Virus record (IMG/VR): IMGVR_UViG_2874968258_000011
Length of the DNA stretch: 31,126 nucleotides
Source of the DNA: a virus
Lineage: Duplodnaviria; Heunggongvirae; Uroviricota; Caudoviricetes
Reading direction: 5' to 3' (one strand)
The notes under the pieces are model-generated. The model had not been told where the DNA came from, ran no database searches, and saw nothing but the letters and a program-made list of their open reading frames with translations. The first letter of the stretch is position 1. Every line of letters starts with the position of its first letter. This document shows, one piece after another, positions 2,266-30,592 of the stretch. Position numbers and translations under genes: made by a program.

Positions 2266-3084
2266 TTAAGCAGCCATCTGATGATATTTTTCCCTGAAGG
2301 CTGCCGGGGAGATATTCCCCAGACGAGAGTGACGACGCTGACGATTGTAGAAAATCTCAATGTATTCCCGTATTACTGAGATGGCTTCATCCCGGTTATT
2401 AAAACGATAGTGGCTCAGGCTCTCATTTTTCAGCGTTCCCCAGAAGCTTTCCATCGGAGCGTTGTCGTAACAGTTACCTTTACGCGACATTGATGTTTTC
2501 AGACCAGACTGCTCCTGTATGACCCGGTAATCGTATGCGCAGTACTGTGAACCTCGATCAGAGTGGTGGATTAGCCCGGCAGGTGGGCGCTGGCTCCTGA
2601 GCGCCATAAACAGGGCTTTACCTGTCAGCTCTTTTGTCATGCGCTCTCCCATGGCGTAGCCGACAATTTCGCACGTATAAACATCTTTGATGCCAGCGAG
2701 GTACAACCATCCCTCCTGTGTGGCAACATACGTCAGGTCCGCCACCCAGACCTGATTTGGTGCTGTAGGAGCGAACGTCTGGTTCAGCAGATTTGGCGCA
2801 ACTGGCAGATTGTGGTTCGAGTTCGTAGTCGCTCTGAACTTGCGTTTCTGCTTACAGCGTAGCCTTAGCTCCTTACGAAGACGTGCCAGTCGGTCACGAC
2901 CAACGATGATGCCATTCTCTGCCAGCTCCGTCTGGAGCCGCCGGGTTCCATATGTTTCGCGAGTGCGGATATGTGCCACCTTAATCTCCAGTTTTAGCCG
3001 CTCATCACTTTGTTTTCTGTCTGAGGGTTCATGCTGTACCCAGTTGTAATAACCGCTCCTGGATACACCAAATACCTGACACAT
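2266..3084 (-). CDS. IS600 OrfB (DDE transposase catalytic part; OrfAB by -1 frameshift)
   Basis: 272-aa ORF; A-run slippery site at end of orfA. Confidence 0.9.
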   Translation of the reverse strand: MCQVFGVSRSGYYNWVQHEPSDRKQSDERLKLEIKVAHIRTRETYGTRRLQTELAENGIIVGRDRLARLRKELRLRCKQKRKFRATTNSNHNLPVAPNLLNQTFAPTAPNQVWVADLTYVATQEGWLYLAGIKDVYTCEIVGYAMGERMTKELTGKALFMALRSQRPPAGLIHHSDRGSQYCAYDYRVIQEQSGLKTSMSRKGNCYDNAPMESFWGTLKNESLSHYRFNNRDEAISVIREYIEIFYNRQRRHSRLGNISPAAFREKYHQMAA

Positions 3085-3119
3085 CGCTTCAATGGGAAAT
3101 TGTTGTCGCCATTGTTCGA

Positions 3120-3422
3120 TTAACGCGTATTTTTCAGCGACTCCTGTGCAAAATACGCTGTTGCTTTTTTTAATATATCTCGCTCAAGGCGAGCTTCATT
3201 TAACGCCTTACGCAGTTGCAGAATTTCAGATTCCAGTTCAGCCACCGTGCGGGAACCAGGAGTACCGAGCCCTTTTCTGGCGGCGGTAACCCATTGTCCT
3301 AAAGTGCCTTCAGGAAGAGATAATCGGGAAGCGCCTTCACTGATCGAAAGTTGATTTTCAAGAACCGTTCTGACAGCTTCGGCTTTGAACTCTTTAGAGT
3401 AACGTTGGGTTTTTCTGCTCAT
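3120..3422 (-). CDS. IS600 OrfA (HTH transposase subunit)
   Basis: 100-aa ORF MSRKTQRYSKEFKAEAV…; variant with L at residue 21. Confidence 0.9.
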   Translation of the reverse strand: MSRKTQRYSKEFKAEAVRTVLENQLSISEGASRLSLPEGTLGQWVTAARKGLGTPGSRTVAELESEILQLRKALNEARLERDILKKATAYFAQESLKNTR

Positions 3423-4793: not shown

Positions 4794-5612
4794 TTAAGCA
4801 GCCATCTGATGATATTTTTCCCTGAAGGCTGCCGGGGAGATATTCCCCAGACGAGAGTGACGACGCTGACGATTGTAGAAAATCTCAATGTATTCCCGTA
4901 TTACTGAGATGGCTTCATCCCGGTTATTAAAACGATAGTGGCTCAGGCTCTCATTTTTCAGCGTTCCCCAGAAGCTTTCCATCGGAGCGTTGTCGTAACA
5001 GTTACCTTTACGCGACATTGATGTTTTCAGACCAGACTGCTCCTGTATGACCCGGTAATCGTATGCGCAGTACTGTGAACCTCGATCAGAGTGGTGGATT
5101 AGCCCGGCAGGTGGGCGCTGGCTCCTGAGCGCCATAAACAGGGCTTTACCTGTCAGCTCTTTTGTCATGCGCTCTCCCATGGCGTAGCCGACAATTTCGC
5201 ACGTATAAACATCTTTGATGCCAGCGAGGTACAACCATCCCTCCTGTGTGGCAACATACGTCAGGTCCGCCACCCAGACCTGATTTGGTGCTGTAGGAGC
5301 GAACGTCTGGTTCAGCAGATTTGGCGCAACTGGCAGATTGTGGTTCGAGTTCGTAGTCGCTCTGAACTTGCGTTTCTGCTTACAGCGTAGCCTTAGCTCC
5401 TTACGAAGACGTGCCAGTCGGTCACGACCAACGATGATGCCATTCTCTGCCAGCTCCGTCTGGAGCCGCCGGGTTCCATATGTTTCGCGAGTGCGGATAT
5501 GTGCCACCTTAATCTCCAGTTTTAGCCGCTCATCACTTTGTTTTCTGTCTGAGGGTTCATGCTGTACCCAGTTGTAATAACCGCTCCTGGATACACCAAA
5601 TACCTGACACAT
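4794..5612 (-). CDS. IS600 OrfB
   Basis: 272-aa ORF identical to copy 1. Confidence 0.9.
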   Translation of the reverse strand: MCQVFGVSRSGYYNWVQHEPSDRKQSDERLKLEIKVAHIRTRETYGTRRLQTELAENGIIVGRDRLARLRKELRLRCKQKRKFRATTNSNHNLPVAPNLLNQTFAPTAPNQVWVADLTYVATQEGWLYLAGIKDVYTCEIVGYAMGERMTKELTGKALFMALRSQRPPAGLIHHSDRGSQYCAYDYRVIQEQSGLKTSMSRKGNCYDNAPMESFWGTLKNESLSHYRFNNRDEAISVIREYIEIFYNRQRRHSRLGNISPAAFREKYHQMAA

Positions 5613-5647
5613 CGCTTCAATGGGAAATTGTTGTCGCCATTGTTCGA

Positions 5648-5950
5648 TTAACGCGTATTTTTCAGCGACTCCTGTGCAAAATACGCTGTTGCTTTTTTTA
5701 ATATATCTCGCTCAAGGCGAGCTTCATTTAACGCCTTACGCAGTTGCAGAATTTCAGATTCCAGTTCAGCCACCGTGCGGGAACCAGGAGTACCGAGCCC
5801 TTTTCTGGCGGCGGTAACCCATTGTCCTAAAGTGCCTTCAGGAAGAGATAATCGGGAAGCGCCTTCACTGATCGAAAGTTGATTTTCAAGAACCGTTCTG
5901 ACAGCTTCGGCTTTGAACTCTTTAGAGTAACGTTGGGTTTTTCTGCTCAT
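5648..5950 (-). CDS. IS600 OrfA
   Basis: Identical to copy 1 OrfA (L variant). Confidence 0.9.
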   Translation of the reverse strand: MSRKTQRYSKEFKAEAVRTVLENQLSISEGASRLSLPEGTLGQWVTAARKGLGTPGSRTVAELESEILQLRKALNEARLERDILKKATAYFAQESLKNTR

Positions 5951-12542: not shown

Positions 12543-12617
<75 letters not shown>

Positions 12618-12620
12618 ATA

Positions 12621-12696
<76 letters not shown>

Positions 12697-12698
12697 GC

Positions 12699-12775
12699 TG
12701 GCCCACCACCGAGGACTCGAACCTCGCACCGTCAACTTAGAAGGTTGATGCTCTATCCGGATGAGCTAGTGGTGG
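12699..12775 (-). tRNA. tRNA-Arg (anticodon UCU); unusual C1:G72
   Basis: Acceptor CCACCAC/GTGGTGG, anticodon loop CTTCTAA, T-arm CGAGGTTCGAGTCCTCG, CCA. Confidence 0.75.
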
Positions 12776-12776
12776 T

Positions 12777-12853
12777 TGGTGGCCCTTGCTGGACTTGAAC
12801 CAGCGACCTGGCGATTATGAGTCGCTCGCTCTGACCAACTGAGCTAAAGGGCC
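12777..12853 (-). tRNA. tRNA with CAU anticodon, ileX-like (Ile2/lysidine type; elongator Met not excluded)
   Basis: GGCCCTTTAGCTCAG…GACTCATAATCGCC…GGTTCAAGTCCAGCAAGGGCCACCA. Confidence 0.75.
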
Positions 12854-14873: not shown

Positions 14874-15149
14874 GTGGCTTCTGTTTCTATCAGCTGTCCC
14901 TCCTGTTCAGCTACTGACGGGGTGGTGCGTAACGGCAAAAGCACTGCCGGACATCAGCGCTATCTCTGCTCTCACTGCCGTAAAACATGGCAACTGCAGT
15001 TCACTTACACCGCTTCCCAACCCGGTACGCACCAGAAAATCATTGATATGGCCATGAATGGCGTTGGATGCCGGGCAACTGCACGCATTATGGGCGTTGG
15101 CCTCAACACGATTTTACGTCACTTAAAAAACTCAGGCCGCAGTCGGTAA
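14874..15149 (+). CDS. insA: IS1 InsA
   Basis: 91-aa ORF. Confidence 0.9.
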
Positions 15150-15571
15150 CCTCGCGCATACAGCCGGGCAGTGACGTCATCGTCTGCGCGGAAATGGACG
15201 AACAGTGGGGCTATGTCGGGGCTAAATCGCGCCAGCGCTGGCTGTTTTACGCGTATGACAGTCTCCGGAAGACGGTTGTTGCGCACGTATTCGGTGAACG
15301 CACTATGGCGACGCTGGGGCGTCTTATGAGCCTGCTGTCACCCTTTGACGTGGTGATATGGATGACGGATGGCTGGCCGCTGTATGAATCCCGCCTGAAG
15401 GGAAAGCTGCACGTAATCAGCAAGCGATATACGCAGCGAATTGAGCGGCATAACCTGAATCTGAGGCAGCACCTGGCACGGCTGGGACGGAAGTCGCTGT
15501 CGTTCTCAAAATCGGTGGAGCTGCATGACAAAGTCATCGGGCATTATCTGAACATAAAACACTATCAATAA
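15068..15571 (+). CDS. insB: IS1 InsB
   Basis: 167-aa ORF. Confidence 0.9.
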
Positions 15572-15678: not shown

Positions 15679-15834
15679 TTACTCTCTAGATTCGTAGTCT
15701 ACGAAAACAGCGACCTCCGTCTGGCCGATTCGGATTCGTACCTCGCAGAGGTCTTTCCTCGTTACCAGTGCCGTCACAATGACGGTTAAACAGATGACGA
15801 TCAGGGCGATTAACATCGCCTTTTGCTGCTTCAT
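15679..15834 (-). CDS. hok: Hok/Gef-family type I toxin (51 aa)
   Basis: MKQQKAMLIALIVICLTVIVTALVTRKDLCEVRIRIGQTEVAVFVDYESRE closely resembles Gef/HokC; AGGAG RBS; ORF-track entry 15679..15891 is an upstream extension. Confidence 0.85.
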   Translation of the reverse strand: MKQQKAMLIALIVICLTVIVTALVTRKDLCEVRIRIGQTEVAVFVDYESRE

Positions 15835-16172
15835 AGCCTGCTTCTCCTTGCCTTTCGGCACGTAAGAGGCTAACCTACATTTGTGAGACATAGATTGGGC
15901 CTCAGATTAATGTTAAGCGTCTTGCAGGACGCGTAATGTTAACTGGGGCTTTTCTCTGTCTGCCTTACAGTGACATACCCGAGGCAGACAGCCTCAAGCA
16001 CCCGCAGCAATCTTACCGACACCGATAAGAAAACGCTATTTTTTATTGCCAGCACCATCTATCCAGGCTAGTTTATCTGCGTCAGAACGGCGCAATGCGC
16101 TCGCCTGAGATACGTTTACTTGCCATGGTAACAACAGGTAACGGCAATTGCTGTTTCTGTTTTGTTTCCTTC

Positions 16173-18389: not shown

Positions 18390-18665
18390 GTGGCTTCTGT
18401 TTCTATCAGCTGTCCCTCCTGTTCAGCTACTGACGGGGTGGTGCGTAACGGCAAAAGCACTGCCGGACATCAGCGCTATCTCTGCTCTCACTGCCGTAAA
18501 ACATGGCAACTGCAGTTCACTTACACCGCTTCTCAACCCGGTACGCACCAGAAAATCATTGATATGGCCATGAATGGCGTTGGATGCCGGGCAACTGCAC
18601 GCATTATGGGCGTTGGCCTCAACACGATTTTACGTCACTTAAAAAACTCAGGCCGCAGTCGGTAA
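18390..18665 (+). CDS. insA: IS1 InsA
   Basis: 91-aa ORF. Confidence 0.9.
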
Positions 18666-19087
18666 CCTCGCGCATACAGCCGGGCAGTGACGTCATCGTC
18701 TGCGCGGAAATGGACGAACAGTGGGGCTATGTCGGGGCTAAATCGCGCCAGCGCTGGCTGTTTTACGCGTATGACAGTCTCCGGAAGACGGTTGTTGCGC
18801 ACGTATTCGGTGAACGCACTATGGCGACGCTGGGGCGTCTTATGAGCCTGCTGTCACCCTTTGACGTGGTGATATGGATGACGGATGGCTGGCCGCTGTA
18901 TGAATCCCGCCTGAAGGGAAAGCTGCACGTAATCAGCAAGCGATATACGCAGCGAATTGAGCGGCATAACCTGAATCTGAGGCAGCACCTGGCACGGCTG
19001 GGACGGAAGTCGCTGTCGTTCTCAAAATCGGTGGAGCTGCATGACAAAGTCATCGGGCATTATCTGAACATAAAACACTATCAATAA
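18584..19087 (+). CDS. insB: IS1 InsB
   Basis: 167-aa ORF. Confidence 0.9.
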
Positions 19088-19164: not shown

Positions 19165-19467
19165 ATGAGCAGAAAAACCCAACGTTACTCTAAAGAGTTC
19201 AAAGCCGAAGCTGTCAGAACGGTTCCTGAAAATCAACTTTCGATCAGTGAAGGCGCTTCCCGATTATCTCTTCCTGAAGGCACTTTAGGACAATGGGTTA
19301 CCGCCGCCAGAAAAGGGCTCGGTACTCCTGGTTCCCGCACGGTGGCTGAACTGGAATCTGAAATTCTGCAACTGCGTAAGGCGTTAAATGAAGCTCGCCT
19401 TGAGCGAGATATATTAAAAAAAGCAACAGCGTATTTTGCACAGGAGTCGCTGAAAAATACGCGTTAA
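19165..19467 (+). CDS. IS600 OrfA (P variant)
   Basis: 100-aa ORF. Confidence 0.9.
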   Translation: MSRKTQRYSKEFKAEAVRTVPENQLSISEGASRLSLPEGTLGQWVTAARKGLGTPGSRTVAELESEILQLRKALNEARLERDILKKATAYFAQESLKNTR

Positions 19468-19502
19468 TCGAACAATGGCGACAACAATTTCCCATTGAAG
19501 CG

Positions 19503-20321
19503 ATGTGTCAGGTATTTGGTGTATCCAGGAGCGGTTATTACAACTGGGTACAGCATGAACCCTCAGACAGAAAACAAAGTGATGAGCGGCTAAAACTGGA
19601 GATTAAGGTGGCACATATCCGCACTCGCGAAACATATGGAACCCGGCGGCTCCAGACGGAGCTGGCAGAGAATGGCATCATCGTTGGTCGTGACCGACTG
19701 GCACGTCTTCGTAAGGAGCTAAGGCTACGCTGTAAGCAGAAACGCAAGTTCAGAGCGACTACGAACTCGAACCACAATCTGCCAGTTGCGCCAAATCTGC
19801 TGAACCAGACGTTCGCTCCTACAGCACCAAATCAGGTCTGGGTGGCGGACCTGACGTATGTTGCCACACAGGAGGGATGGTTGTACCTCGCTGGCATCAA
19901 AGATGTTTATACGTGCGAAATTGTCGGCTACGCCATGGGAGAGCGCATGACAAAAGAGCTGACAGGTAAAGCCCTGTTTATGGCGCTCAGGAGCCAGCGC
20001 CCACCTGCCGGGCTAATCCACCACTCTGATCGAGGTTCACAGTACTGCGCATACGATTACCGGGTCATACAGGAGCAGTCTGGTCTGAAAACATCAATGT
20101 CGCGTAAAGGTAACTGTTACGACAACGCTCCGATGGAAAGCTTCTGGGGAACGCTGAAAAATGAGAGCCTGAGCCACTATCGTTTTAATAACCGGGATGA
20201 AGCCATCTCAGTAATACGGGAATACATTGAGATTTTCTACAATCGTCAGCGTCGTCACTCTCGTCTGGGGAATATCTCCCCGGCAGCCTTCAGGGAAAAA
20301 TATCATCAGATGGCTGCTTAA
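19503..20321 (+). CDS. IS600 OrfB
   Basis: 272-aa ORF. Confidence 0.9.
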   Translation: MCQVFGVSRSGYYNWVQHEPSDRKQSDERLKLEIKVAHIRTRETYGTRRLQTELAENGIIVGRDRLARLRKELRLRCKQKRKFRATTNSNHNLPVAPNLLNQTFAPTAPNQVWVADLTYVATQEGWLYLAGIKDVYTCEIVGYAMGERMTKELTGKALFMALRSQRPPAGLIHHSDRGSQYCAYDYRVIQEQSGLKTSMSRKGNCYDNAPMESFWGTLKNESLSHYRFNNRDEAISVIREYIEIFYNRQRRHSRLGNISPAAFREKYHQMAA

Positions 20322-22033: not shown

Positions 22034-22852
22034 TTAAGCAGCCATCTGATGATATTTTTCCCTGAAGGCTGCCGGGGAGATATTCCCCAGACGAGAGTGA
22101 CGACGCTGACGATTGTAGAAAATCTCAATGTATTCCCGTATTACTGAGATGGCTTCATCCCGGTTATTAAAACGATAGTGGCTCAGGCTCTCATTTTTCA
22201 GCGTTCCCCAGAAGCTTTCCATCGGAGCGTTGTCGTAACAGTTACCTTTACGCGACATTGATGTTTTCAGACCAGACTGCTCCTGTATGACCCGGTAATC
22301 GTATGCGCAGTACTGTGAACCTCGATCAGAGTGGTGGATTAGCCCGGCAGGTGGGCGCTGGCTCCTGAGCGCCATAAACAGGGCTTTACCTGTCAGCTCT
22401 TTTGTCATGCGCTCTCCCATGGCGTAGCCGACAATTTCGCACGTATAAACATCTTTGATGCCAGCGAGGTACAACCATCCCTCCTGTGTGGCAACATACG
22501 TCAGGTCCGCCACCCAGACCTGATTTGGTGCTGTAGGAGCGAACGTCTGGTTCAGCAGATTTGGCGCAACTGGCAGATTGTGGTTCGAGTTCGTAGTCGC
22601 TCTGAACTTGCGTTTCTGCTTACAGCGTAGCCTTAGCTCCTTACGAAGACGTGCCAGTCGGTCACGACCAACGATGATGCCATTCTCTGCCAGCTCCGTC
22701 TGGAGCCGCCGGGTTCCATATGTTTCGCGAGTGCGGATATGTGCCACCTTAATCTCCAGTTTTAGCCGCTCATCACTTTGTTTTCTGTCTGAGGGTTCAT
22801 GCTGTACCCAGTTGTAATAACCGCTCCTGGATACACCAAATACCTGACACAT
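22034..22852 (-). CDS. IS600 OrfB
   Basis: 272-aa ORF. Confidence 0.9.
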   Translation of the reverse strand: MCQVFGVSRSGYYNWVQHEPSDRKQSDERLKLEIKVAHIRTRETYGTRRLQTELAENGIIVGRDRLARLRKELRLRCKQKRKFRATTNSNHNLPVAPNLLNQTFAPTAPNQVWVADLTYVATQEGWLYLAGIKDVYTCEIVGYAMGERMTKELTGKALFMALRSQRPPAGLIHHSDRGSQYCAYDYRVIQEQSGLKTSMSRKGNCYDNAPMESFWGTLKNESLSHYRFNNRDEAISVIREYIEIFYNRQRRHSRLGNISPAAFREKYHQMAA

Positions 22853-22887
22853 CGCTTCAATGGGAAATTGTTGTCGCCATTGTTCGA

Positions 22888-23190
22888 TTAACGCGTATTT
22901 TTCAGCGACTCCTGTGCAAAATACGCTGTTGCTTTTTTTAATATATCTCGCTCAAGGCGAGCTTCATTTAACGCCTTACGCAGTTGCAGAATTTCAGATT
23001 CCAGTTCAGCCACCGTGCGGGAACCAGGAGTACCGAGCCCTTTTCTGGCGGCGGTAACCCATTGTCCTAAAGTGCCTTCAGGAAGAGATAATCGGGAAGC
23101 GCCTTCACTGATCGAAAGTTGATTTTCAGGAACCGTTCTGACAGCTTCGGCTTTGAACTCTTTAGAGTAACGTTGGGTTTTTCTGCTCAT
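22888..23190 (-). CDS. IS600 OrfA (P variant)
   Basis: 100-aa ORF. Confidence 0.9.
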   Translation of the reverse strand: MSRKTQRYSKEFKAEAVRTVPENQLSISEGASRLSLPEGTLGQWVTAARKGLGTPGSRTVAELESEILQLRKALNEARLERDILKKATAYFAQESLKNTR

Positions 23191-23980
23191 TATTAGCTCC
23201 TTCTGATGCCATTCTATTTCAGGAAGGAGTGTCCGTTAAACTCAGGCTACCTCAGATATCAATCCGCCCTCCGCAACCGTCACCACGCTCTGGCACCGGA
23301 TACTCACGACAGACATCCAGGCCAGCAGCCTGCAACGCAACCACCGCAGAATTACAAAATTCCGCTGCAGTACCGCCAGATAATCTCCCCTCAAGCACTC
23401 CAGCCACAAAATCCCGAAACTCCCTTCCGGAAGGGAAGGGTTTGGGATGGGTTAGATCTGTTTTTAGATCTTTATCTGTATCTTTATTAGTTGCCTTTGT
23501 GTTGGCATCATGTTCGAACATCACTCCAACATCTGTTTGAACACCTGTTAAATTTCTCTCTTGTTTTGTTTGAACATCTGCTTCCTTTCTGCTTCTTCTG
23601 GCCTGAACAGATGCTTTTCCTGCGGCTGATTTTTTGGTTAATTTTTCTCTGACAGATGCCAGATCTTCCTCAATCCGAAGATGCATCCATTCGTCGCCGT
23701 TATCACAAAAAAACTCCCGCAAGGATGGTTCAACATCAACCCATCGCTCGTTAGTCAGACGGGCAATTTTTGCCAACCTGTTTTTGGGTATTGGCTTTCC
23801 TGTTTGCCAGTAATTGAACATCAGCAACAAATACGCGCCGTGCTCCTCTGCTGACAAATGCATGGTGTCAGCCAGGTAATCAGCTATGTACAGTTGCATG
23901 TATGGTAATGCGGCCATAATTGCCCCGTATGATGCTGCCCGGTTGCTTAGAATAAGCACAAACAGCATGGAAACTTTTGC

Positions 23981-24403
23981 TTAATGAACAATGACAGAAT
24001 CGTCGGAAGACCCGCCGCCGCTGAAATGCGCTTTCCGGTAAACGGCCTGGACTGCATCATCATGCGCATCAATTGCCGTACTCAACGCTTCCTGCGCCGC
24101 CAGTAATGCACGGCGTTCCAGGGTATCGAAGATGCAGAGTCGGTGACGCAGCTCGCGCGGAAGAATTGCCAGAACCGCAGGGATCAGTTTCTGAATTTTT
24201 TCCCTTTGCGCTTTCGTTTCACCTTTCAACCAACGGTGATAGATATTCTGCTGATTGTTCCAGTCCTTGCCTGGTACAAGGGGCAATTCGCCGCCCCCCT
24301 GGCGCAGATATTCTTCAGTAATTGCGTTAGCGACCCACGCCTGCCCTTTTTCGGCTGCCAGGGCTAACAACACTGATTCGATGTGCTCATGCCTGATTTT
24401 CAT
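23981..24403 (-). CDS. YdaT-like / CII-like prophage regulatory protein
   Basis: 140-aa ORF MKIRHEHIESVLLAL…; start overlaps cro-like stop (ATGA). Confidence 0.55.
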   Translation of the reverse strand: MKIRHEHIESVLLALAAEKGQAWVANAITEEYLRQGGGELPLVPGKDWNNQQNIYHRWLKGETKAQREKIQKLIPAVLAILPRELRHRLCIFDTLERRALLAAQEALSTAIDAHDDAVQAVYRKAHFSGGGSSDDSVIVH

Positions 24404-24642
24404 GAATCAACCGCTCCTATGCTGTTTTCGCTATGCTTACCGTCTGGGGGGAATACATCGTCAAGTCCACAATGAGCGCCAAGCCGATTAAGGGTAGAAA
24501 CAATTTTTCTGCACTCCTCTAGTCCAGGGGTACGAAAATTTGCTTCGTAATTTGCCAGTCGGCTTTGTATCCACCCTAACTGAACAGCAAGTTGTCTTTG
24601 AGACAGCCCAAGCTGTTTTCGATATGTTGAAATTTTGTTCAT
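24400..24642 (-). CDS. Cro/YdaS-like HTH (XRE) regulator
   Basis: 80-aa ORF with HTH QLGLSQRQLAVQLGWIQSRLANYE; divergent from repressor gene. Confidence 0.7.
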   Translation of the reverse strand: MNKISTYRKQLGLSQRQLAVQLGWIQSRLANYEANFRTPGLEECRKIVSTLNRLGAHCGLDDVFPPDGKHSENSIGAVDS

Positions 24643-24738
24643 TGAAAACCTCCGATGACAATTTTAAACACACCTTGTGTTATATAGCCAAGCTGTTTTG
24701 TGTTTTATGTAAATCACGATTCGTGATACAAGGATGCA
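24643..24738. promoter_or_regulatory. Divergent immunity-region control region with two 15-bp palindromes (AACACAccTTGTGTT 24667-24681; ATCACGattCGTGAT 24713-24727)
   Basis: 96-bp intergenic spacer between divergent HTH genes; perfect palindromes read directly. Confidence 0.55.
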
Positions 24739-25158
24739 ATGGAAAAAGAAAACGAAAAAATTGCCGCTAGTAGGCTCAATGACAAAATTGCAATGCGTCT
24801 TAAAGAGCGCAGGCAGAAGCTTGGTTTATCTCAAGGAAAACTTGCTGAAATCTGCGGATGGACGCAATCGCGTATAGGTAACTATGAGGCGGGCAGCAGA
24901 AATGTTGGAGTACATGACGCTGTCGTATTGGGAAAGGCACTTGGCATATCTCCTCCTGAGCTCCTCTTTGGAGAACAGGAATCTTCTGAATTGTGGTTAA
25001 ATGAATCCCAACGAAAACTTCTTGAGTTGTTTAACCAGCTACCGGGCTCAGAACAACAACGAATGATTGAGCTATTTGAAGTCCGGCTAAAAGAAATCGA
25101 TGAGTATGTAGAAAAATATTTGAGAGGCAGGATTAAAGATAATCCCCCACCGGAATAA
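24739..25158 (+). CDS. CI-like prophage repressor, HTH-XRE, no recognisable S24 peptidase domain (RacR-like)
   Basis: 139-aa ORF with HTH KLGLSQGKLAEICGWTQSRIGNYE; helical C-terminus. Confidence 0.7.
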   Translation: MEKENEKIAASRLNDKIAMRLKERRQKLGLSQGKLAEICGWTQSRIGNYEAGSRNVGVHDAVVLGKALGISPPELLFGEQESSELWLNESQRKLLELFNQLPGSEQQRMIELFEVRLKEIDEYVEKYLRGRIKDNPPPE

Positions 25159-25189
25159 TGATCTTGCTATCACAGTAATATGCCAATCA

Positions 25190-25212
25190 GCCCGCTATCA
25201 GCGGGCTTTTTT
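25190..25212 (+). terminator. Intrinsic terminator after repressor gene (GCCCGCT-ATC-AGCGGGC then T6)
   Basis: Perfect 7-bp stem followed by TTTTTT. Confidence 0.7.
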
Positions 25213-25254
25213 GTAGCATCATCATATGACACTCACCATAAAACACATTGCGTG

Positions 25255-25283
25255 TTGACACAAGAAAACAAATTGTGTTTAAT
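25255..25283 (+). promoter_or_regulatory. Candidate sigma70 promoter (TTGACA, 17-bp spacer, TTTAAT) overlapped by inverted repeat ACACAA…TTGTGT
   Basis: Consensus -35 hexamer and AT-rich -10 read in sequence. Confidence 0.45.
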
Positions 25284-25463
25284 AAGCATATCCAAACAAC
25301 GCCCCACCAGAGAACGGCAGGACAATACCTCGAGTTATCCAGTCACTGAACAGGGCTAAGTAGCCAGCCTGAGGCATACGAACATGACGGCAGTTGTTGA
25401 TTGATACAAAGCGCAGTAGATAAAACGTTCCGCCACCCGGCGTTAAGGGGAAATGGGGTCAAC

Positions 25464-25619
25464 ATGAATACTATCGATCTTGGCAACAACGAATCTCTGG
25501 TATGTGGCGTGTTTCCCAATCAAGACGGCACATTCACCGCCATGACGTATACCAAAAGCAAAACGTTTAAAACCGAAGCTGGCGCACGTCGTTGGTTGGG
25601 AAGACATTCAGGTGAGTAA
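25464..25619 (+). CDS. Hypothetical small prophage protein (51 aa)
   Basis: ORF from internal ATG with G-rich RBS; early-left region context. Confidence 0.4.
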   Translation: MNTIDLGNNESLVCGVFPNQDGTFTAMTYTKSKTFKTEAGARRWLGRHSGE

Positions 25620-25662
25620 AATGAACGAGACAGAATTAAAACACGTTATCGCTCTACTCCTA

Positions 25663-26815
25663 AATAGCTGCGCGGAATAGTAGATCACTTTGAGGGAACT
25701 TAGCCCGGATTGTGCGATCTGATCAATCGCCAAATCAAAACAAATCACCAACCGGACTGAGCAATGCCGATCATAGCACCAATTTCCCGTGACGAACGAC
25801 GCCTGATGCAGAAAGCCATCCATAAAACACACGATAAAAATTATGCCCGCAGACTGACTGCCATGCTGATGCTGCACCGGGGCGACCGTGTCAGCGACGT
25901 TGCCAGAACGCTCTGCTGCGCCCGTTCCTCTGTTGGACGCTGGATTAACTGGTTCACGCAGTCGGGTGTTGAGGGACTGAAATCATTACCTGCCGGGCGT
26001 GCCCGTCGCTGGCCGTTTGAGCATATCTGCACACTGTTACGTGAGCTGGTAAAACATTCTCCCGGCGACTTTGGCTACCAGCGTTCACGCTGGAGTACAG
26101 AACTGCTGGCAATAAAAATCAATGAGATAACCGGTTGCCAGTTAAATGCCGGAACCGTTCGCCGCTGGTTGCCGTCTGCGGGGATTGTGTGGCGAAGGGC
26201 TGCGCCAACTCTGCGTATCCGTGACCCGCATAAAGATGAAAAGATGGCAGCAATCCATAAAGCACTGGACGAATGCAGCGCAGAGCATCCGGTCTTTTAT
26301 GAAGATGAAGTGGATATCCATCTTAATCCCAAAATCGGTGCGGACTGGCAACTGCGCGGACAGCAAAAACGGGTGGTCACGCCGGGACAGAATGAAAAAT
26401 ATTATCTGGCCGGAGCGCTGCACAGCGGGACAGGTAAAGTCAGCTGTGTGGGCGGCAACAGCAAAAGTTCGGCGCTGTTCATCAGCCTGCTGAAGCGGCT
26501 TAAAGCGACATACCGTCGGGCGAAAACCATCACGCTGATCGTGGACAACTACATTATCCACAAAAGCCGGGAAACACAGAGCTGGCTGAAGGAGAACCCG
26601 AAGTTCAGGGTCATTTATCAGCCGGTTTACTCGCCATGGGTGAATCATGTTGAACGGCTATGGCAGGCACTTCACGACACAATAACGCGTAATCATCAGT
26701 GCAGCTCAATGTGGCAACTGTTGAAAAAAGTTCGCCATTTTATGGAAACCGTCAGCCCATTCCCCGGAGGCAAACATGGGCTGGCAAAAGTGTAGCGGTA
26801 TTAAGCGCAGCTATT
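25663..26815 (+). mobile_element. IS630, 1153 bp, TA target duplication
   Basis: Inverted ends AATAGCTGCGC…/…GCGCAGCTATT; TA at 25661-25662 and 26816-26817; 343-aa transposase. Confidence 0.85.
25764..26795 (+). CDS. IS630-family transposase
   Basis: 343-aa ORF with N-terminal HTH and DDE-type C-terminal region. Confidence 0.85.
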   Translation: MPIIAPISRDERRLMQKAIHKTHDKNYARRLTAMLMLHRGDRVSDVARTLCCARSSVGRWINWFTQSGVEGLKSLPAGRARRWPFEHICTLLRELVKHSPGDFGYQRSRWSTELLAIKINEITGCQLNAGTVRRWLPSAGIVWRRAAPTLRIRDPHKDEKMAAIHKALDECSAEHPVFYEDEVDIHLNPKIGADWQLRGQQKRVVTPGQNEKYYLAGALHSGTGKVSCVGGNSKSSALFISLLKRLKATYRRAKTITLIVDNYIIHKSRETQSWLKENPKFRVIYQPVYSPWVNHVERLWQALHDTITRNHQCSSMWQLLKKVRHFMETVSPFPGGKHGLAKV

Positions 26816-27647: not shown

Positions 27648-28493
27648 ATGTTGAATGTAGCTATTGAAAACCAGAACGGGTGGAATTATAGTGCACCTGC
27701 ACCTCATAAAACGGGTGCCGGGATTGCTACCCCGAAGTCATTCACGGCGCATAACCGCGCTCAGGCGGTTTTTTTATGCGTAATGCACAGCCACATTCAA
27801 ATTATGGTGGGGCGTGCGGGGCAGTCGCAAGACTGGCCGGGTTCCGTGATGACCGGTTGTAGCAACCCTGTACGTCTCACCACCCATGAGATTGCTACCT
27901 CCGGTGGTGAGTTAATCAAATTCATCGCGGAGGCTGCCATCATGGCTACTACCCTTTCTCACCCTTGTGTAACCGTAGAAAACGGTCGCGCTGTCACTAC
28001 GTCTGTTGCGGTTGCAGAGTTCTTCCACAAACGACACGACAATGTGTTACGTGCCATCGCAAATATTGAATGCTCAGATAAATTTACTGCCCTCAATTTT
28101 GAAGCGAGCGAATACACCGACTCAATCGGGCGCAAACTCCCAATGTACCAAATCACCAAAAACGGCTTCGTTTTCCTGGTTATGGGCTTCACTGGCAAAA
28201 AAGCCGCTGCATTCAAAGAAGCCTACATTGCTGAGTTCGACCGCATGGAGGCCGAACTGCGCCAGAATAACACCCCACCTGCTGACAAGATGATTCCGGG
28301 TGATGGTCGCACTCTGGTTGTTCACTTCGACAAATTCGGCAATGTCGAATTCACCGAAACCGTTCCTGATGGCGCACTGGTCTGTACCCTGGAGACTTTC
28401 CGGTTTTATCTGGAAAAACAGGGATGGACTCTTGTTAACCGGGGCGCAATTAAAAATATGACTGTGGAACAATTACTCAAAATTCATTGTTGA
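27648..28493 (+). CDS. Rha-family phage regulatory protein / antirepressor-like; alternative internal start at 27942
   Basis: Rha-like segment VTVENGRAVTTSVAVAEFFHKRHDNVLRAI begins near residue 105; both 27648 and 27942 ATGs have RBS. Confidence 0.5.
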   Translation: MLNVAIENQNGWNYSAPAPHKTGAGIATPKSFTAHNRAQAVFLCVMHSHIQIMVGRAGQSQDWPGSVMTGCSNPVRLTTHEIATSGGELIKFIAEAAIMATTLSHPCVTVENGRAVTTSVAVAEFFHKRHDNVLRAIANIECSDKFTALNFEASEYTDSIGRKLPMYQITKNGFVFLVMGFTGKKAAAFKEAYIAEFDRMEAELRQNNTPPADKMIPGDGRTLVVHFDKFGNVEFTETVPDGALVCTLETFRFYLEKQGWTLVNRGAIKNMTVEQLLKIHC

Positions 28494-29435: not shown

Positions 29436-29738
29436 ATGAGCAGAAAAACCCAACGTTACTCTAAAGAGTTCAAAGCCGAAGCTGTCAGAACGGTTCCTGA
29501 AAATCAACTTTCGATCAGTGAAGGCGCTTCCCGATTATCTCTTCCTGAAGGCACTTTAGGACAATGGGTTACCGCCGCCAGAAAAGGGCTCGGTACTCCT
29601 GGTTCCCGCACGGTGGCTGAACTGGAATCTGAAATTCTGCAACTGCGTAAGGCGTTAAATGAAGCTCGCCTTGAGCGAGATATATTAAAAAAAGCAACAG
29701 CGTATTTTGCACAGGAGTCGCTGAAAAATACGCGTTAA
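29436..29738 (+). CDS. IS600 OrfA (P variant)
   Basis: 100-aa ORF. Confidence 0.9.
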   Translation: MSRKTQRYSKEFKAEAVRTVPENQLSISEGASRLSLPEGTLGQWVTAARKGLGTPGSRTVAELESEILQLRKALNEARLERDILKKATAYFAQESLKNTR

Positions 29739-29773
29739 TCGAACAATGGCGACAACAATTTCCCATTGAAGCG

Positions 29774-30592
29774 ATGTGTCAGGTATTTGGTGTATCCAGG
29801 AGCGGTTATTACAACTGGGTACAGCATGAACCCTCAGACAGAAAACAAAGTGATGAGCGGCTAAAACTGGAGATTAAGGTGGCACATATCCGCACTCGCG
29901 AAACATATGGAACCCGGCGGCTCCAGACGGAGCTGGCAGAGAATGGCATCATCGTTGGTCGTGACCGACTGGCACGTCTTCGTAAGGAGCTAAGGCTACG
30001 CTGTAAGCAGAAACGCAAGTTCAGAGCGACTACGAACTCGAACCACAATCTGCCAGTTGCGCCAAATCTGCTGAACCAGACGTTCACTCCTACAGCACCA
30101 AATCAGGTCTGGGTGGCGGACCTGACGTATGTTGCCACACAGGAGGGATGGTTGTACCTCGCTGGCATCAAAGATGTTTATACGTGCGAAATTGTCGGCT
30201 ACGCCATGGGAGAGCGCATGACAAAAGAGCTGACAGGTAAAGCCCTGTTTATGGCGCTCAGGAGCCAGCGCCCACCTGCCGGGCTAATCCACCACTCTGA
30301 TCGAGGTTCACAGTACTGCGCATACGATTACCGGGTCATACAGGAGCAGTCTGGTCTGAAAACATCAATGTCGCGTAAAGGTAACTGTTACGACAACGCT
30401 CCGATGGAAAGCTTCTGGGGAACGCTGAAAAATGAGAGCCTGAGCCACTATCGTTTTAATAACCGGGATGAAGCCATCTCAGTAATACGGGAATACATTG
30501 AGATTTTCTACAATCGTCAGCGTCGTCACTCTCGTCTGGGGAATATCTCCCCGGCAGCCTTCAGGGAAAAATATCATCAGATGGCTGCTTAA
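29774..30592 (+). CDS. IS600 OrfB
   Basis: 272-aa ORF. Confidence 0.9.
   Translation: MCQVFGVSRSGYYNWVQHEPSDRKQSDERLKLEIKVAHIRTRETYGTRRLQTELAENGIIVGRDRLARLRKELRLRCKQKRKFRATTNSNHNLPVAPNLLNQTFTPTAPNQVWVADLTYVATQEGWLYLAGIKDVYTCEIVGYAMGERMTKELTGKALFMALRSQRPPAGLIHHSDRGSQYCAYDYRVIQEQSGLKTSMSRKGNCYDNAPMESFWGTLKNESLSHYRFNNRDEAISVIREYIEIFYNRQRRHSRLGNISPAAFREKYHQMAA

Follow-up and report, generated by a model that had tools for sequence, protein, structure and literature searches.

A predicted lambda-type immunity switch with one operator family in a decayed Rac/Qin-type prophage

Positions 23981-25619 of the window (the whole stretch of 31,126 nucleotides of viral DNA analysed in this study) were identified as the immunity region of a decayed lambdoid prophage of the Rac/Qin type, and we put at roughly 80% the probability that the locus as a whole is a lambda-type bistable immunity switch. 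A single type of predicted 15-bp operator, A(A/T)CAC-N5-GTG(A/T)T, is present there in five copies at three promoters. The design of such a switch is known and well studied, and what is new here is one more allele and no new type of system: one immunity specificity is added to the Rac/Qin/CP-933P switch class, together with a precise operator map that can be tested, and the annotation labels 'RacR-like' and 'YdaS' are corrected, without a new field being opened.

Gene organization of the immunity region

The genes of the locus, with the predicted YdaT box, are arranged as follows.

23981-24403, minus strand: ydaT, regulator gene at the CII position (140 aa; Pfam YdaT_toxin, PF06254, at 2.4e-11)
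24393-24410, minus strand: predicted YdaT box, TTGATTCATGAAAATCAG, at the ATGA overlap of the cro stop and ydaT start codons
24400-24642, minus strand: cro-like gene (80 aa; Pfam HTH_3 at 6.7e-10)
24739-25158, plus strand: repressor gene (139 aa; HTH_3 at about residues 17-78 and a two-helix C-terminal domain at residues 89-133)
25464-25619, plus strand: ydfA/ydaF-like first gene of the early-left operon (51 aa; DUF1391, Pfam 5.8e-29)
25764-26795, plus strand: IS630-type transposase gene (DDE_3 and HTH_23), which cuts the early-left operon

The three reading frames of the original prediction (repressor, cro-like and ydaT) were all recovered with the same coordinates, and its view of the segment as an immunity region agrees with the Pfam and PHROG assignments and with the gene order in intact relatives, in which cro-ydaT-ydaU-ydaV are located on one side and DUF1391...kil-recE-recT on the other. 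The cro-like gene and the repressor gene are separated by an intergenic region of 96 bp (24643-24738). The DUF1391 protein is 90% identical to YdfA and 88% identical to YdaF, and the similarity to the closest E. coli genomes stops shortly behind its gene, at about position 25660; in intact relatives the early-left operon runs on into dicB/kil, ydaE and recE/recT. Decay of the prophage is apparent from the IS elements that interrupt both ydaU and the early-left operon, so that the switch now governs little.

Domain composition of the repressor

A Pfam search with the repressor gave HTH families only (HTH_3 at 4.6e-13), and Peptidase_S24 was detected neither by Pfam nor by structure search, as had been expected of a repressor described as an HTH protein without a LexA/S24 domain. 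The AlphaFold model is all-helical (pLDDT 87) with residues 89-133 forming two helices, and its fold matches are limited to the 434/P22-type HTH, among them the N-terminal domains of the 434, P22 c2 and lambda repressors. The description of this protein as RacR-like was not confirmed: K-12 RacR gave a BLASTP E-value of 2.1 and the C-terminal comparison by hhalign a probability of 0.3%, and homology to RacR was rejected.

Three other repressors gave clear relationships. K-12 DicA is similar over the full length (BLASTP, 29% identity over 129 residues, E = 2e-15), and the DicA-type C-terminal motif LLxLFxxLPxxEQ is invariant or nearly so in two repressor alignments. The N-terminal domain is 58% identical to that of the CI protein of phage mEp213, which bears an S24 domain, and the recognition helix, QSRIGNYE, is the same in both. 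The C-terminal profile matched residues 72-117 of PaaR2 (hhalign probability 95%, E = 3e-8); the pairwise match to PaaR2 is confined to this C-terminal part and the DNA-binding domains are not homologous. PaaR2 was not found when E. coli genomes carrying a related repressor gene were searched for similar DNA, and for this comparison its sequence was recovered from viral contigs by means of a published primer. As judged from these alignments, the repressor is composed of a DNA-binding domain of the mEp213 CI type and a short helical C-terminal domain common to DicA (Qin) and PaaR2 (CP-933P). When the C-terminal domain alone was compared with 1.8 billion proteins, only 20 clusters were obtained, indicating a narrow family. 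The DicA/PaaR2-type helical domain is joined to HTH domains of four or more unrelated kinds.

Cro-like protein and YdaT

The 80-aa Cro protein shares 38 of 71 residues with mEp213 Cro, and between 35 and 41 identical residues with the Cro proteins of mEp213, Chris1 and six enterobacterial loci of the same operator type. Its recognition helix, QSRLANYE, resembles that of the repressor, and the Cro type co-segregates with the type of the repressor N-terminal domain and with the operator type. The original prediction named a Cro/YdaS gene followed by ydaT. The Cro and YdaT parts of this statement hold, but the YdaS identity had to be rejected, for neither the YdaS Pfam family (PF15943) nor a BLAST match to K-12 YdaS or DicC was found with this mEp213-Cro-like protein; of the K-12 YdaS/YdaT pair, only YdaT is common to the present locus.

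YdaT is 97% identical to YdaT of K-12 Rac, matches 'CII-like transcriptional activator' in PHROG (1e-36), and matches the solved structures of the YdaT family, 3c4r and 8bt1, over the full length. The predicted YdaT box, missed by the original prediction, differs at one position from TTGATT-N6-AATCAA and is the sole match with up to one mismatch in the window; the K-12 Rac box, ATGATTCATGAAAATCAA, was footprinted at the equivalent position (PMC11879457). On these similarities YdaT is a member of its family and a CII analogue, with a predicted box over its own start codon. A search by eye for a reverse PRE-like promoter inside cro gave only a weak candidate, GAGACA-17-TATGTT.

Promoters and operators

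The control elements predicted from the sequence of the intergenic region and of the segment downstream of the repressor gene are listed below; the operators are given without strand.

24661-24691, minus strand: PR-like promoter of cro-ydaT, -35 TTGGCT at 24691-24686
24667-24681: operator OR1, AACACAcctTGTGTT, in the spacer and -10 of PR (17.9 bits; exact match to the pattern)
24690-24704: candidate operator OR2, AAGCTGttttGTGTT (4.6 bits; the right half-site alone is good)
24713-24727: operator OR3, ATCACGAtTCGTGAT, a perfect palindrome that overlaps PRM at its extended -10 (16.3 bits)
24724-24739, plus strand: PRM-like promoter, TG at 24724-24725, -10 TACAAG at 24727-24732, 6 nt, then the repressor ATG
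25189-25215, plus strand: intrinsic terminator of the repressor gene, hairpin at 25189-25207 (8-bp stem, 6 GC pairs) followed by TTTTTTG
25242-25256: operator OL2, AACACAttgCGTGTT (20.4 bits, the top matrix match in the window; exact match to the pattern)
25255-25285, plus strand: PL-like promoter, -35 TTGACA at 25255-25260, -10 TTTAAT at 25278-25283 (17-bp spacer) or TAATAA at 25280-25285
25265-25279: operator OL1, AAAACAaatTGTGTT, in the spacer and -10 of PL (17.7 bits; one mismatch to the pattern)

For PR, the -10 candidates are TTTAAA (24668-24663, 17-bp spacer) and TAAAAT (24666-24661, 19-bp spacer), and a Shine-Dalgarno sequence, GGAGG, is located at 24653-24649; in the alignment of ten loci, neither GTCAA in the -35 nor T..A in the -10 region varies. 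All of the ten aligned loci keep TGnTAnnnn-N6(7)-ATG at PRM, and since the -10 is placed only 6 nt from the ATG, the repressor mRNA is predicted to be leaderless, as it probably is; the paaR2 mRNA has been shown by experiment to be leaderless (PMC8630535). The consensus-like promoter proposed behind the repressor terminator was confirmed as TTGACA-17-TTTAAT (25255-25283), in a position homologous to that of K-12 Rac PL (TTGACA-17-TATAGT) and Qin dicBp (TTGACC-17-TAATCT), and an equivalent terminator hairpin was found in the relatives. None of PR, PRM and PL was listed by a consensus promoter scan, PL being absent because T, and not A, stands at position 2 of its second hexamer. The 17-bp-spacer -10 sequences of PR and PL are both without the usual A at this position, and the alternatives TAAAAT and TAATAA need a 19-bp spacer.

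As a test of the operator assignment, we scanned the 31 kb with a matrix built from the relatives only. At 16 bits or higher exactly four sites, OR1, OR3, OL2 and OL1, were obtained against 0.09 expected, and none of 500 shuffled sequences gave more than two such matches; the exact pattern was found three times against 0.10 expected, in every case within the immunity region. The three TTGTGTT copies noticed earlier (24675, 24698 and 25273) are real and correspond to the operator half-site. This heptamer occurs seven times when both strands are counted (3.8 expected), and 15 of 500 shuffles had three copies within 600 bp. By itself it is weak evidence, while the full operator pattern is strong.

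The operator layout is shared by ten loci, including phages mEp213 and Chris1. OR1 occupies the same position in all ten, and in the Salmonella locus its arms are kept and its centre is altered; the same holds in Salmonella for OR3, of which CAC/GTG is invariant in the ten loci. OR2 is at a distance of exactly 23 bp from each of OR1 and OR3, its centre being 42 bp upstream of the repressor ATG; it is 100% conserved in Salmonella between altered flanks, and the relatives also carry weak middle sites at the equivalent place. OL2, which had escaped notice on the -35 of the downstream promoter, ends in the TT that forms the first bases of TTGACA, in a register kept in eight other loci. OL1 is 23 bp from OL2, with a degenerate left arm, and is placed in PL in the same register as OR1 in PR.

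The intergenic region had been described as carrying two distinct perfect palindromes. The one at 24713-24727 is indeed perfect (7+1+7), but that at 24667-24681 consists of 6-bp arms around a non-symmetric 3-bp centre. Nor are the two distinct in type: both fit the operator pattern, mEp213 carries both half-site types (AACAC and ATCAC) within single operators and OL2 is itself a hybrid of both (AACACA...CGTGTT). With one operator family at all three promoters, and in ten related loci, the earlier proposal that one regulator controls the divergent promoters and the promoter behind the terminator is very probably correct.

Comparison with known switches

In lambda, three operators about 23 bp apart are placed on back-to-back promoters, the middle one about 42 bp upstream of where the repressor gene starts, and the repressor mRNA is leaderless. 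The present locus resembles this geometry in operator spacing, in the position of the middle operator and in the probable leaderless repressor mRNA, and is also like lambda in the divergent repressor and cro genes, in the CII-position gene after cro, and in the second operator set on PL, a promoter that lies behind the repressor gene and points in the same direction; as in a lambda-type immunity region, predicted operators of one family are present at both PR/PRM and PL. In contrast to lambda, S24 is absent, the operators are of 15 bp instead of 17 bp, two clear OL sites are present, and YdaT replaces CII; an N gene or nut site was not recognizable at this locus. With respect to the LexA/lambda-CI family, the repressor has the N-terminal HTH but not the C-terminal S24 domain with its cleavage site.

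In repressor N-terminal domain and helix, Cro, operator family and -10-N6-ATG arrangement the locus resembles mEp213. By recognition helix, Cro type and operator family the locus appears to fit the mEp213 specificity group. In mEp213, OR and OL each comprise three sites at intervals of 22-24 bp; the phage differs in its CI of 213 aa with a LexA-type S24 domain and in having nutL, an N gene and a CII of the lambda type. Lambdoid repressors are clearly assembled from exchangeable parts, in that the same DNA-binding domain, Cro and operators go with S24 in mEp213 and with the DicA/PaaR2 helical domain here; the two form a natural pair for studying how the mode of induction is swapped with immunity specificity unchanged.

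With Qin, the locus shares a full-length homologue of DicA including the C-terminal domain, an operator in the PL spacer, and a downstream unit starting with ydfA. It differs in the operator, as DicA Oc is TTGTTAGTCATAACTAACAA (TTGTTAG...CTAACAA; PMC3441716), also present in the K-12 sequence, so that similarity to DicA is full-length without the Oc operator specificity; Cro is without similarity to DicC, ydaT stands where Qin has ydfX, and no homologue of the rem antirepressor gene was found in the window. The architecture of CP-933P, studied by experiment, is alike in its 97-bp intergenic region, PRM/PR/PL, OR and OL operators, leaderless mRNA, absence of a peptidase motif and YdaT as CII analogue (PMC8630535). 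PaaR2 shares the homologous C-terminal domain, but its N-terminal domain is unrelated, its operators are GTTTAGTAA repeats, its Cro is of the YdaS type, and it is followed by the paaA2-parE2 toxin-antitoxin pair where the present locus has a terminator. With K-12 Rac the backbone flanks are the same (YdaT, the place of its box, ydaU/ydaV, the ydaF-like first PL gene and the leader type), as is the PL operator layout, but the immunity cassette has been replaced, without similarity to RacR or YdaS, and the Rac operators are TTAGGC-N3-GCCTAA-like.

Proposed mechanism of the switch

Dimers of the 139-aa repressor would bind the 15-bp operators. Occupancy of OR1, with cooperative occupancy of the weak OR2, would block PR, the promoter of cro, ydaT and the replication genes; OR2, from its position, may serve for activation of PRM as by lambda CI, and OR3, on the extended -10 of PRM, would shut off synthesis of the repressor once its concentration is high. 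The repressor transcript probably starts at its own ATG. At OL2 and OL1, on the PL -35 and spacer 560 bp away, the repressor would silence the early-left operon, which in intact relatives extends from ydfA to dicB/kil and recET, possibly with looping between the two operator sets. Cro, with its almost identical recognition helix, would compete for the same operators, and YdaT would bind the box over its own start codon; we infer this site-by-site assignment of the binding proteins.

By extrapolation from PaaR2, which is an octamer (PMC8630535), the C-terminal two-helix domain most likely has a role in oligomerisation, and it is probably also the handle for inactivation, which would imply an antirepressor or a stochastic flip in place of RecA-stimulated cleavage. 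By analogy, induction through an antirepressor is most likely, as shown for DicA and Rem: DicA, which lacks a cleavage site, binds Oc, represses dicC and dicBp and is inactivated by Rem independently of RecA (PMC3441716, PMC10448788). For PaaR2/YdaS, OR footprints, control of PL and no response to mitomycin have been reported (PMC8630535). No Rem homologue is encoded in the window; an Ash/Rha ORF is located at 27648-28493. The antirepressors of Gifsy prophages are under LexA control. The Gifsy-type Salmonella repressors do not self-cleave and are inactivated by small antirepressor proteins (PMC10448788). In contrast, no LexA box (CTGT-N8-ACAG) is present in the window; the likeness to Gifsy concerns the probable mode of induction.

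Alternative interpretations

Classical induction by RecA-stimulated self-cleavage of the repressor might be suspected from the homology of its N-terminal domain to that of mEp213 CI, a LexA-family protein. We consider its probability close to nil and this route refuted at the sequence level, because the LexA/S24 domain is absent, the C-terminal part being 45 alpha-helical residues in an all-helical model, and the homologues DicA and PaaR2 are unresponsive to mitomycin C or RecA (PMC10448788, PMC8630535); the original judgement that RecA cleavage is an unlikely route thus stands. Little credence is given also to the idea that the two palindromes serve two proteins, one the repressor and the other Cro or YdaT, with two operator systems within 96 bp. 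Their sequences do differ at 4 of 12 arm positions, and K-12 YdaT also protects racR-ydaS intergenic DNA (PMC11879457), but both palindromes fit one pattern, half-sites of both types are mixed in the single operators of mEp213 and in OL2, the repressor and Cro share a common recognition helix, and the intergenic region contains no match to the YdaT consensus TTGATT-N6-AATCAA.

The lambda-type switch was also weighed against an addiction module resembling a toxin-antitoxin system, in which the repressor restrains toxic products of cro and ydaT and no phage switch exists. The Pfam label of YdaT as a toxin, the reported toxicity of K-12 YdaS/YdaT with lethality of racR silencing through this pair (PMC5700373, PMC5700377), and the intact immunity core in an otherwise decayed prophage all point that way. 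We find it improbable in view of the same module in complete phages that form plaques or were induced (e.g., mEp213, Chris1 and Tritos), of an operator and promoter layout that is lambda's, PL unit included, and of YdaT being a DNA-binding CII analogue with solved structures (PMC9986795), its toxicity with YdaS having been disputed as a mere overexpression effect of Cro and CII analogues (PMC5917428). Equally unlikely in our estimate is an inert relic, in which the reading frames are intact, the promoters dead and nothing is regulated. The non-canonical -10 hexamers, unlisted by the promoter scan, and the heavy IS decay are what a relic would show, but the three reading frames, five operators, terminator and YdaT box are all intact, the region is 98-99.8% identical among 153 E. 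coli genomes, identical hexamers are found in functional phages, and in Salmonella the operator arms are conserved while the spacers changed.

Leader of the early-left transcript

25300-25460, plus strand: conserved untranslated leader of the early-left transcript, including a 44-nt block identical in the Salmonella locus between differing flanks

Elements related to this leader were found in K-12 Rac, five phages and 12 other loci. A consensus structure received weak support, an Rfam search of the PL leader gave no match, and comparison with the HK022 PL/put region yielded chance words only; a likeness to putL, judged by eye from a few short common motifs, was considered insufficient. Speculatively, and with the odds clearly against it, the early-left unit may begin with a cis-acting regulatory RNA, either a protein-independent antiterminator like HK022 put or a site at which an unrecognised antiterminator is loaded; under the same reserve, the C-terminal helical domain may act as an 'SOS-blind' module that can be swapped. 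If the former were true, early-left transcription could reach recET and int, and if the latter, the prophage would confer damage-proof immunity against mEp213-type phages. The leader is related to a nearly invariant core of about 55 nt that occurs behind PL in prophages representing four or more immunity types and many enterobacterial genera.

Organization of the immunity region

Judging from the gene order in intact relatives, in which the replication genes ydaU and ydaV come next in the minus-strand unit and the plus-strand unit runs on into dicB/kil, ydaE, recE and recT, the stretch 23981-25619 is the cI-cro-cII segment of a lambdoid prophage of the Rac/Qin type, in which the promoter downstream of the repressor gene takes the place of PL. 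The coordinates, ORFs, 96-bp spacer, terminator and promoter-like sequence in the original prediction were all found to be real. The locus is widespread: at least 80% of it is present, with 98-99.8% identity, in 153 complete E. coli genomes.

Features of the immunity region
23981-24403, minus: ydaT
24400-24642, minus: cro-like gene (80 aa), ATGA overlap with ydaT
between the cro-like and repressor genes: 96-bp intergenic region
24739-25158, plus: repressor gene (139 aa)
25189-25207, plus: terminator hairpin
25255-25283, plus: promoter-like TTGACA-17-TTTAAT
between this promoter-like sequence and the DUF1391 gene, plus: 180-nt leader
25464-25619, plus: DUF1391 gene (ydfA/ydaF-like)

Domain composition of the repressor

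The predicted lack of an S24 domain was confirmed: Pfam gave HTH families only, the AlphaFold model (pLDDT 87) consists of helices throughout, two of them making up the C-terminal part (residues 89-99 and 103-133), and solved-structure and fold searches matched the HTH alone, to 434, P22 c2, lambda and C-proteins. The description of the repressor as RacR-like had to be abandoned, with a BLASTP E of 2.1 against RacR and no match of the C-terminal domain profile to RacR. DicA of Qin is a full-length homologue (E = 2e-15), and the C-terminal domain is homologous to that of PaaR2 of CP-933P (hhalign 95%, E = 3e-8; PaaR2 sequence recovered through a published primer). The N-terminal domain is 58% identical to its counterpart in phage mEp213 CI, a LexA-family protein of 213 aa as against 139 aa here, and the QSRIGNYE helix is identical. 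Taken together, these matches indicate that the repressor joins a DNA-binding domain of mEp213 type to a tail of DicA/PaaR2 type.

The C-terminal domain, with the motif LLxLFxQLPxxEQ...RLKEIDxYVEKYLRGR, has a restricted distribution (a search of 1.8 billion proteins gave 20 clusters at 50% identity), and no Pfam family was found for it. At least four different HTH domains are carried on it: that of the window, those of DicA and PaaR2, and a YdaS-like-HTH type from loci in Klebsiella, Kluyvera, Serratia and Lonsdalea.

A second repressor class with the same conserved C-terminal domain and a different HTH (GISKADMARIAGVTPQAVNGWFKKG) was observed in loci L014-L023 and L025 (Klebsiella, Serratia, Sodalis, Kluyvera, Pluralibacter, Dryocola, Phytobacter, Symbiopectobacterium and Lonsdalea); its partner is a YdaS-like Cro in the loci where the neighbour was examined (L014, L017-L020).

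Operators

Operator sites
24667-24681: OR1
24690-24704: OR2 (weak candidate)
24713-24727: OR3
25242-25256: OL2
25265-25279: OL1

Of the two 15-bp palindromes described as perfect, ATCACGAtTCGTGAT (24713-24727) is so, while AACACAcctTGTGTT (24667-24681) has 6-bp arms around an asymmetric 3-bp centre. They had been described as distinct, but both fit A[AT]CAC-N5-GTG[AT]T, and since mEp213, which carries three OR and three OL sites, mixes AACAC and ATCAC half-sites within single operators, the two palindromes do not represent two systems. Exact copies of the pattern number three over the 31 kb (24667, 24713 and 25242), against 0.10 expected, and a copy with one mismatch lies at 25265. The three TTGTGTT copies are present as predicted and form the right half-sites of OR1, OR2 and OL1; their clustering alone is weak evidence, as three copies fall within 600 bp in 3% of shuffles.

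In order to avoid circularity, a weight matrix was built from 22 sites of relatives only (mEp213 and four enterobacterial loci with repressors 56-65% identical to that of the window). Over the window exactly four sites scored 16 bits or more (25242, 24667, 25265 and 24713), the next best reaching 8.9 bits; dinucleotide shuffles gave a mean of 0.09 such hits and never more than two. The weak fifth site, OR2, has a good right arm alone and lies exactly 23 bp from both OR1 and OR3, the same distance as between OL2 and OL1. Invariant columns in the ten-locus alignment include CAC/GTG of OR1 and OR3, part of OR2, GTCAA of the PR -35, TA of the PRM -10 and the repressor ATG. The closest relative, from Salmonella (repressor 83% identical), has retained the operator arms and differs in the operator centres and in the flanks.

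The operator-like AAAACTTCTTGAGTT inside the repressor gene (25014-25028), which ranks fifth in the window with 8.9 bits, is probably due to chance, shuffles giving 2.8 hits of this kind.

Candidate promoters

The putative PR for cro-ydaT (minus strand) has -35 TTGGCT, a spacer filled by OR1, a -10 of either TTTAAA (17-bp spacer, without A at position 2) or TAAAAT (19-bp spacer), and a GGAGG ribosome site for cro downstream. The candidate PL is in the same register, with OL2 ending in the first two bases of TTGACA, OL1 in the spacer and TTTAAT or TAATAA as -10; K-12 Rac PL and Qin dicBp carry their own operator types at the same two positions. For the predicted PRM of the repressor gene, the right arm of OR3 provides TG one base before TACAAG, followed 6 nt on by the ATG. 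All three assignments are tentative, 0 of 3 having passed the consensus promoter scan of the tool employed. Counted from a +1 at 24739, the OR sites are centred at -19, -42 and -65; lambda PRM has this geometry, and CI at -42 activates. TGnTAnnnn-N6(7)-ATG is kept in 10 of 10 loci, and from the -10 six nt before the ATG the repressor mRNA is predicted to be leaderless, as was found by experiment for paaR2 mRNA (PMC8630535).

In phage mEp213 (L028 1498-1506), cI is annotated as starting (MRMNRTE...) 6 nt before the ATG aligned with the conserved -10-N6-ATG; this second ATG is probably the true start, giving a leaderless mRNA.

Cro and YdaT

Cro type, repressor N-terminal type and operator type segregate together, and the Cro helix QSRLANYE is nearly the same as QSRIGNYE of the repressor, as expected for proteins competing over the same sites. 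YdaT is 97% identical to K-12 YdaT, a tetrameric CII analogue (PMC9986795, PMC11879457). Across the ydaT start codon lies the minus-strand TTGATTCATGAAAATCAG (24410-24393), which corresponds to the footprinted K-12 Rac YdaT box (PMC11879457) and is one base off the CP-933P consensus. The Rac box activates a reverse racR promoter; inside the different cro gene of the window, no convincing counterpart of that promoter was found.

PL leader

The PL leader is strongly conserved (window 25300-25460; K-12 Rac, L004 4011-4111, minus strand; L031 3073-3173) and was also found in loci L005-L025 and phages L033-L038. A 44-nt block, CTAAGTAGCCAGCCTGAGGCATACGAACATGACGGCAGTTGTTG, is identical between the window and Salmonella, a related core of about 55 nt is almost unchanged over many genera and immunity types, and a shorter variant, AGGCAGGAcGCCCACGAAGTAGCTGCCGGCGGCATACGAAaCACCGGATGAGATG, hardly varies among 12 loci of many genera with at least two repressor types. 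For both short and long variants, RNAalifold predicted a closing helix with a few compensatory changes, which stem from few independent lineages, and the window leader folds no better than shuffles (z = +1.6). No Rfam family matched the leader, and no significant similarity to HK022 put was detected. The leader may act in cis as a regulatory RNA similar to put or nut.

A stretch of PP818812.1, 'Actinobacillus phage vB_Apl-pPE4', is 99.4% identical to the E. coli-type PL leader of the window, and its DicA-annotated repressor is 62% identical to the window protein, which is unexpected for a phage of Pasteurellaceae and points to contamination or a wrongly assigned host.

Proposed regulation and induction

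The immunity region is most likely a lambda-type bistable switch. The repressor on OR1/OR2 and OL2/OL1 would silence both early units, with PRM possibly activated from OR2 and autorepressed from OR3; Cro would compete for the repressor sites and YdaT would support establishment of repression. Higher-order assembly is probably through the helical tail, PaaR2 being an octamer (PMC8630535); OR and OL are separated by 560 bp. All elements of the architecture are known from systems already studied (lambda, Qin, Rac or CP-933P); specific here are the operator map and the pairing, within a Rac backbone, of mEp213-type specificity and a DicA/PaaR2-type tail.

Inactivation would also probably act on the helical tail. 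In the homologues that have been characterised, induction depends on neither RecA nor mitomycin C (PMC10448788, PMC8630535), and DicA is induced by antirepressor Rem, stochastic flipping, heat or urea (PMC10448788). Neither a rem homologue nor a LexA box was found in the window. An ORF with Ash and Rha domains (27648-28493) in the former early-left operon has PHROG matches to antirepressors (Ant), and two Rfam matches precede or overlap it:

27699-27775: isrK
27800-27887: C4 antisense RNA

This arrangement resembles P1 immI and Gifsy-1 isrK-anrP, and the ORF is no more than a candidate for the induction route of the S24-less repressor; an O145 relative with the same immunity region is without it.

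State of the prophage

The prophage is heavily decayed, with its immunity core intact. An IS630-type element (25764-26795) cuts the early-left operon behind ydfA, its junction at about 25660 being carried by none of the complete E. coli genomes in the collection, and an IS3-family element (100-aa and 272-aa ORFs) truncates ydaU (23252-23968). The IS density of the window is very high. Other parts of the remnant contain four clustered tRNA genes and a sok antisense RNA accompanied by a hok-like ORF.

Repeated and accessory elements
22034-23190, 2266-3422, 4794-5950, 19165-20321, 29436-30592: IS3-family element, five copies
1128-1631, 15068-15571, 18584-19087: 167-aa ORF, three copies
15829-16003, minus: sok antisense RNA
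15679-15891, minus: hok-like 70-aa ORF
12546-12853, minus: tRNA cluster
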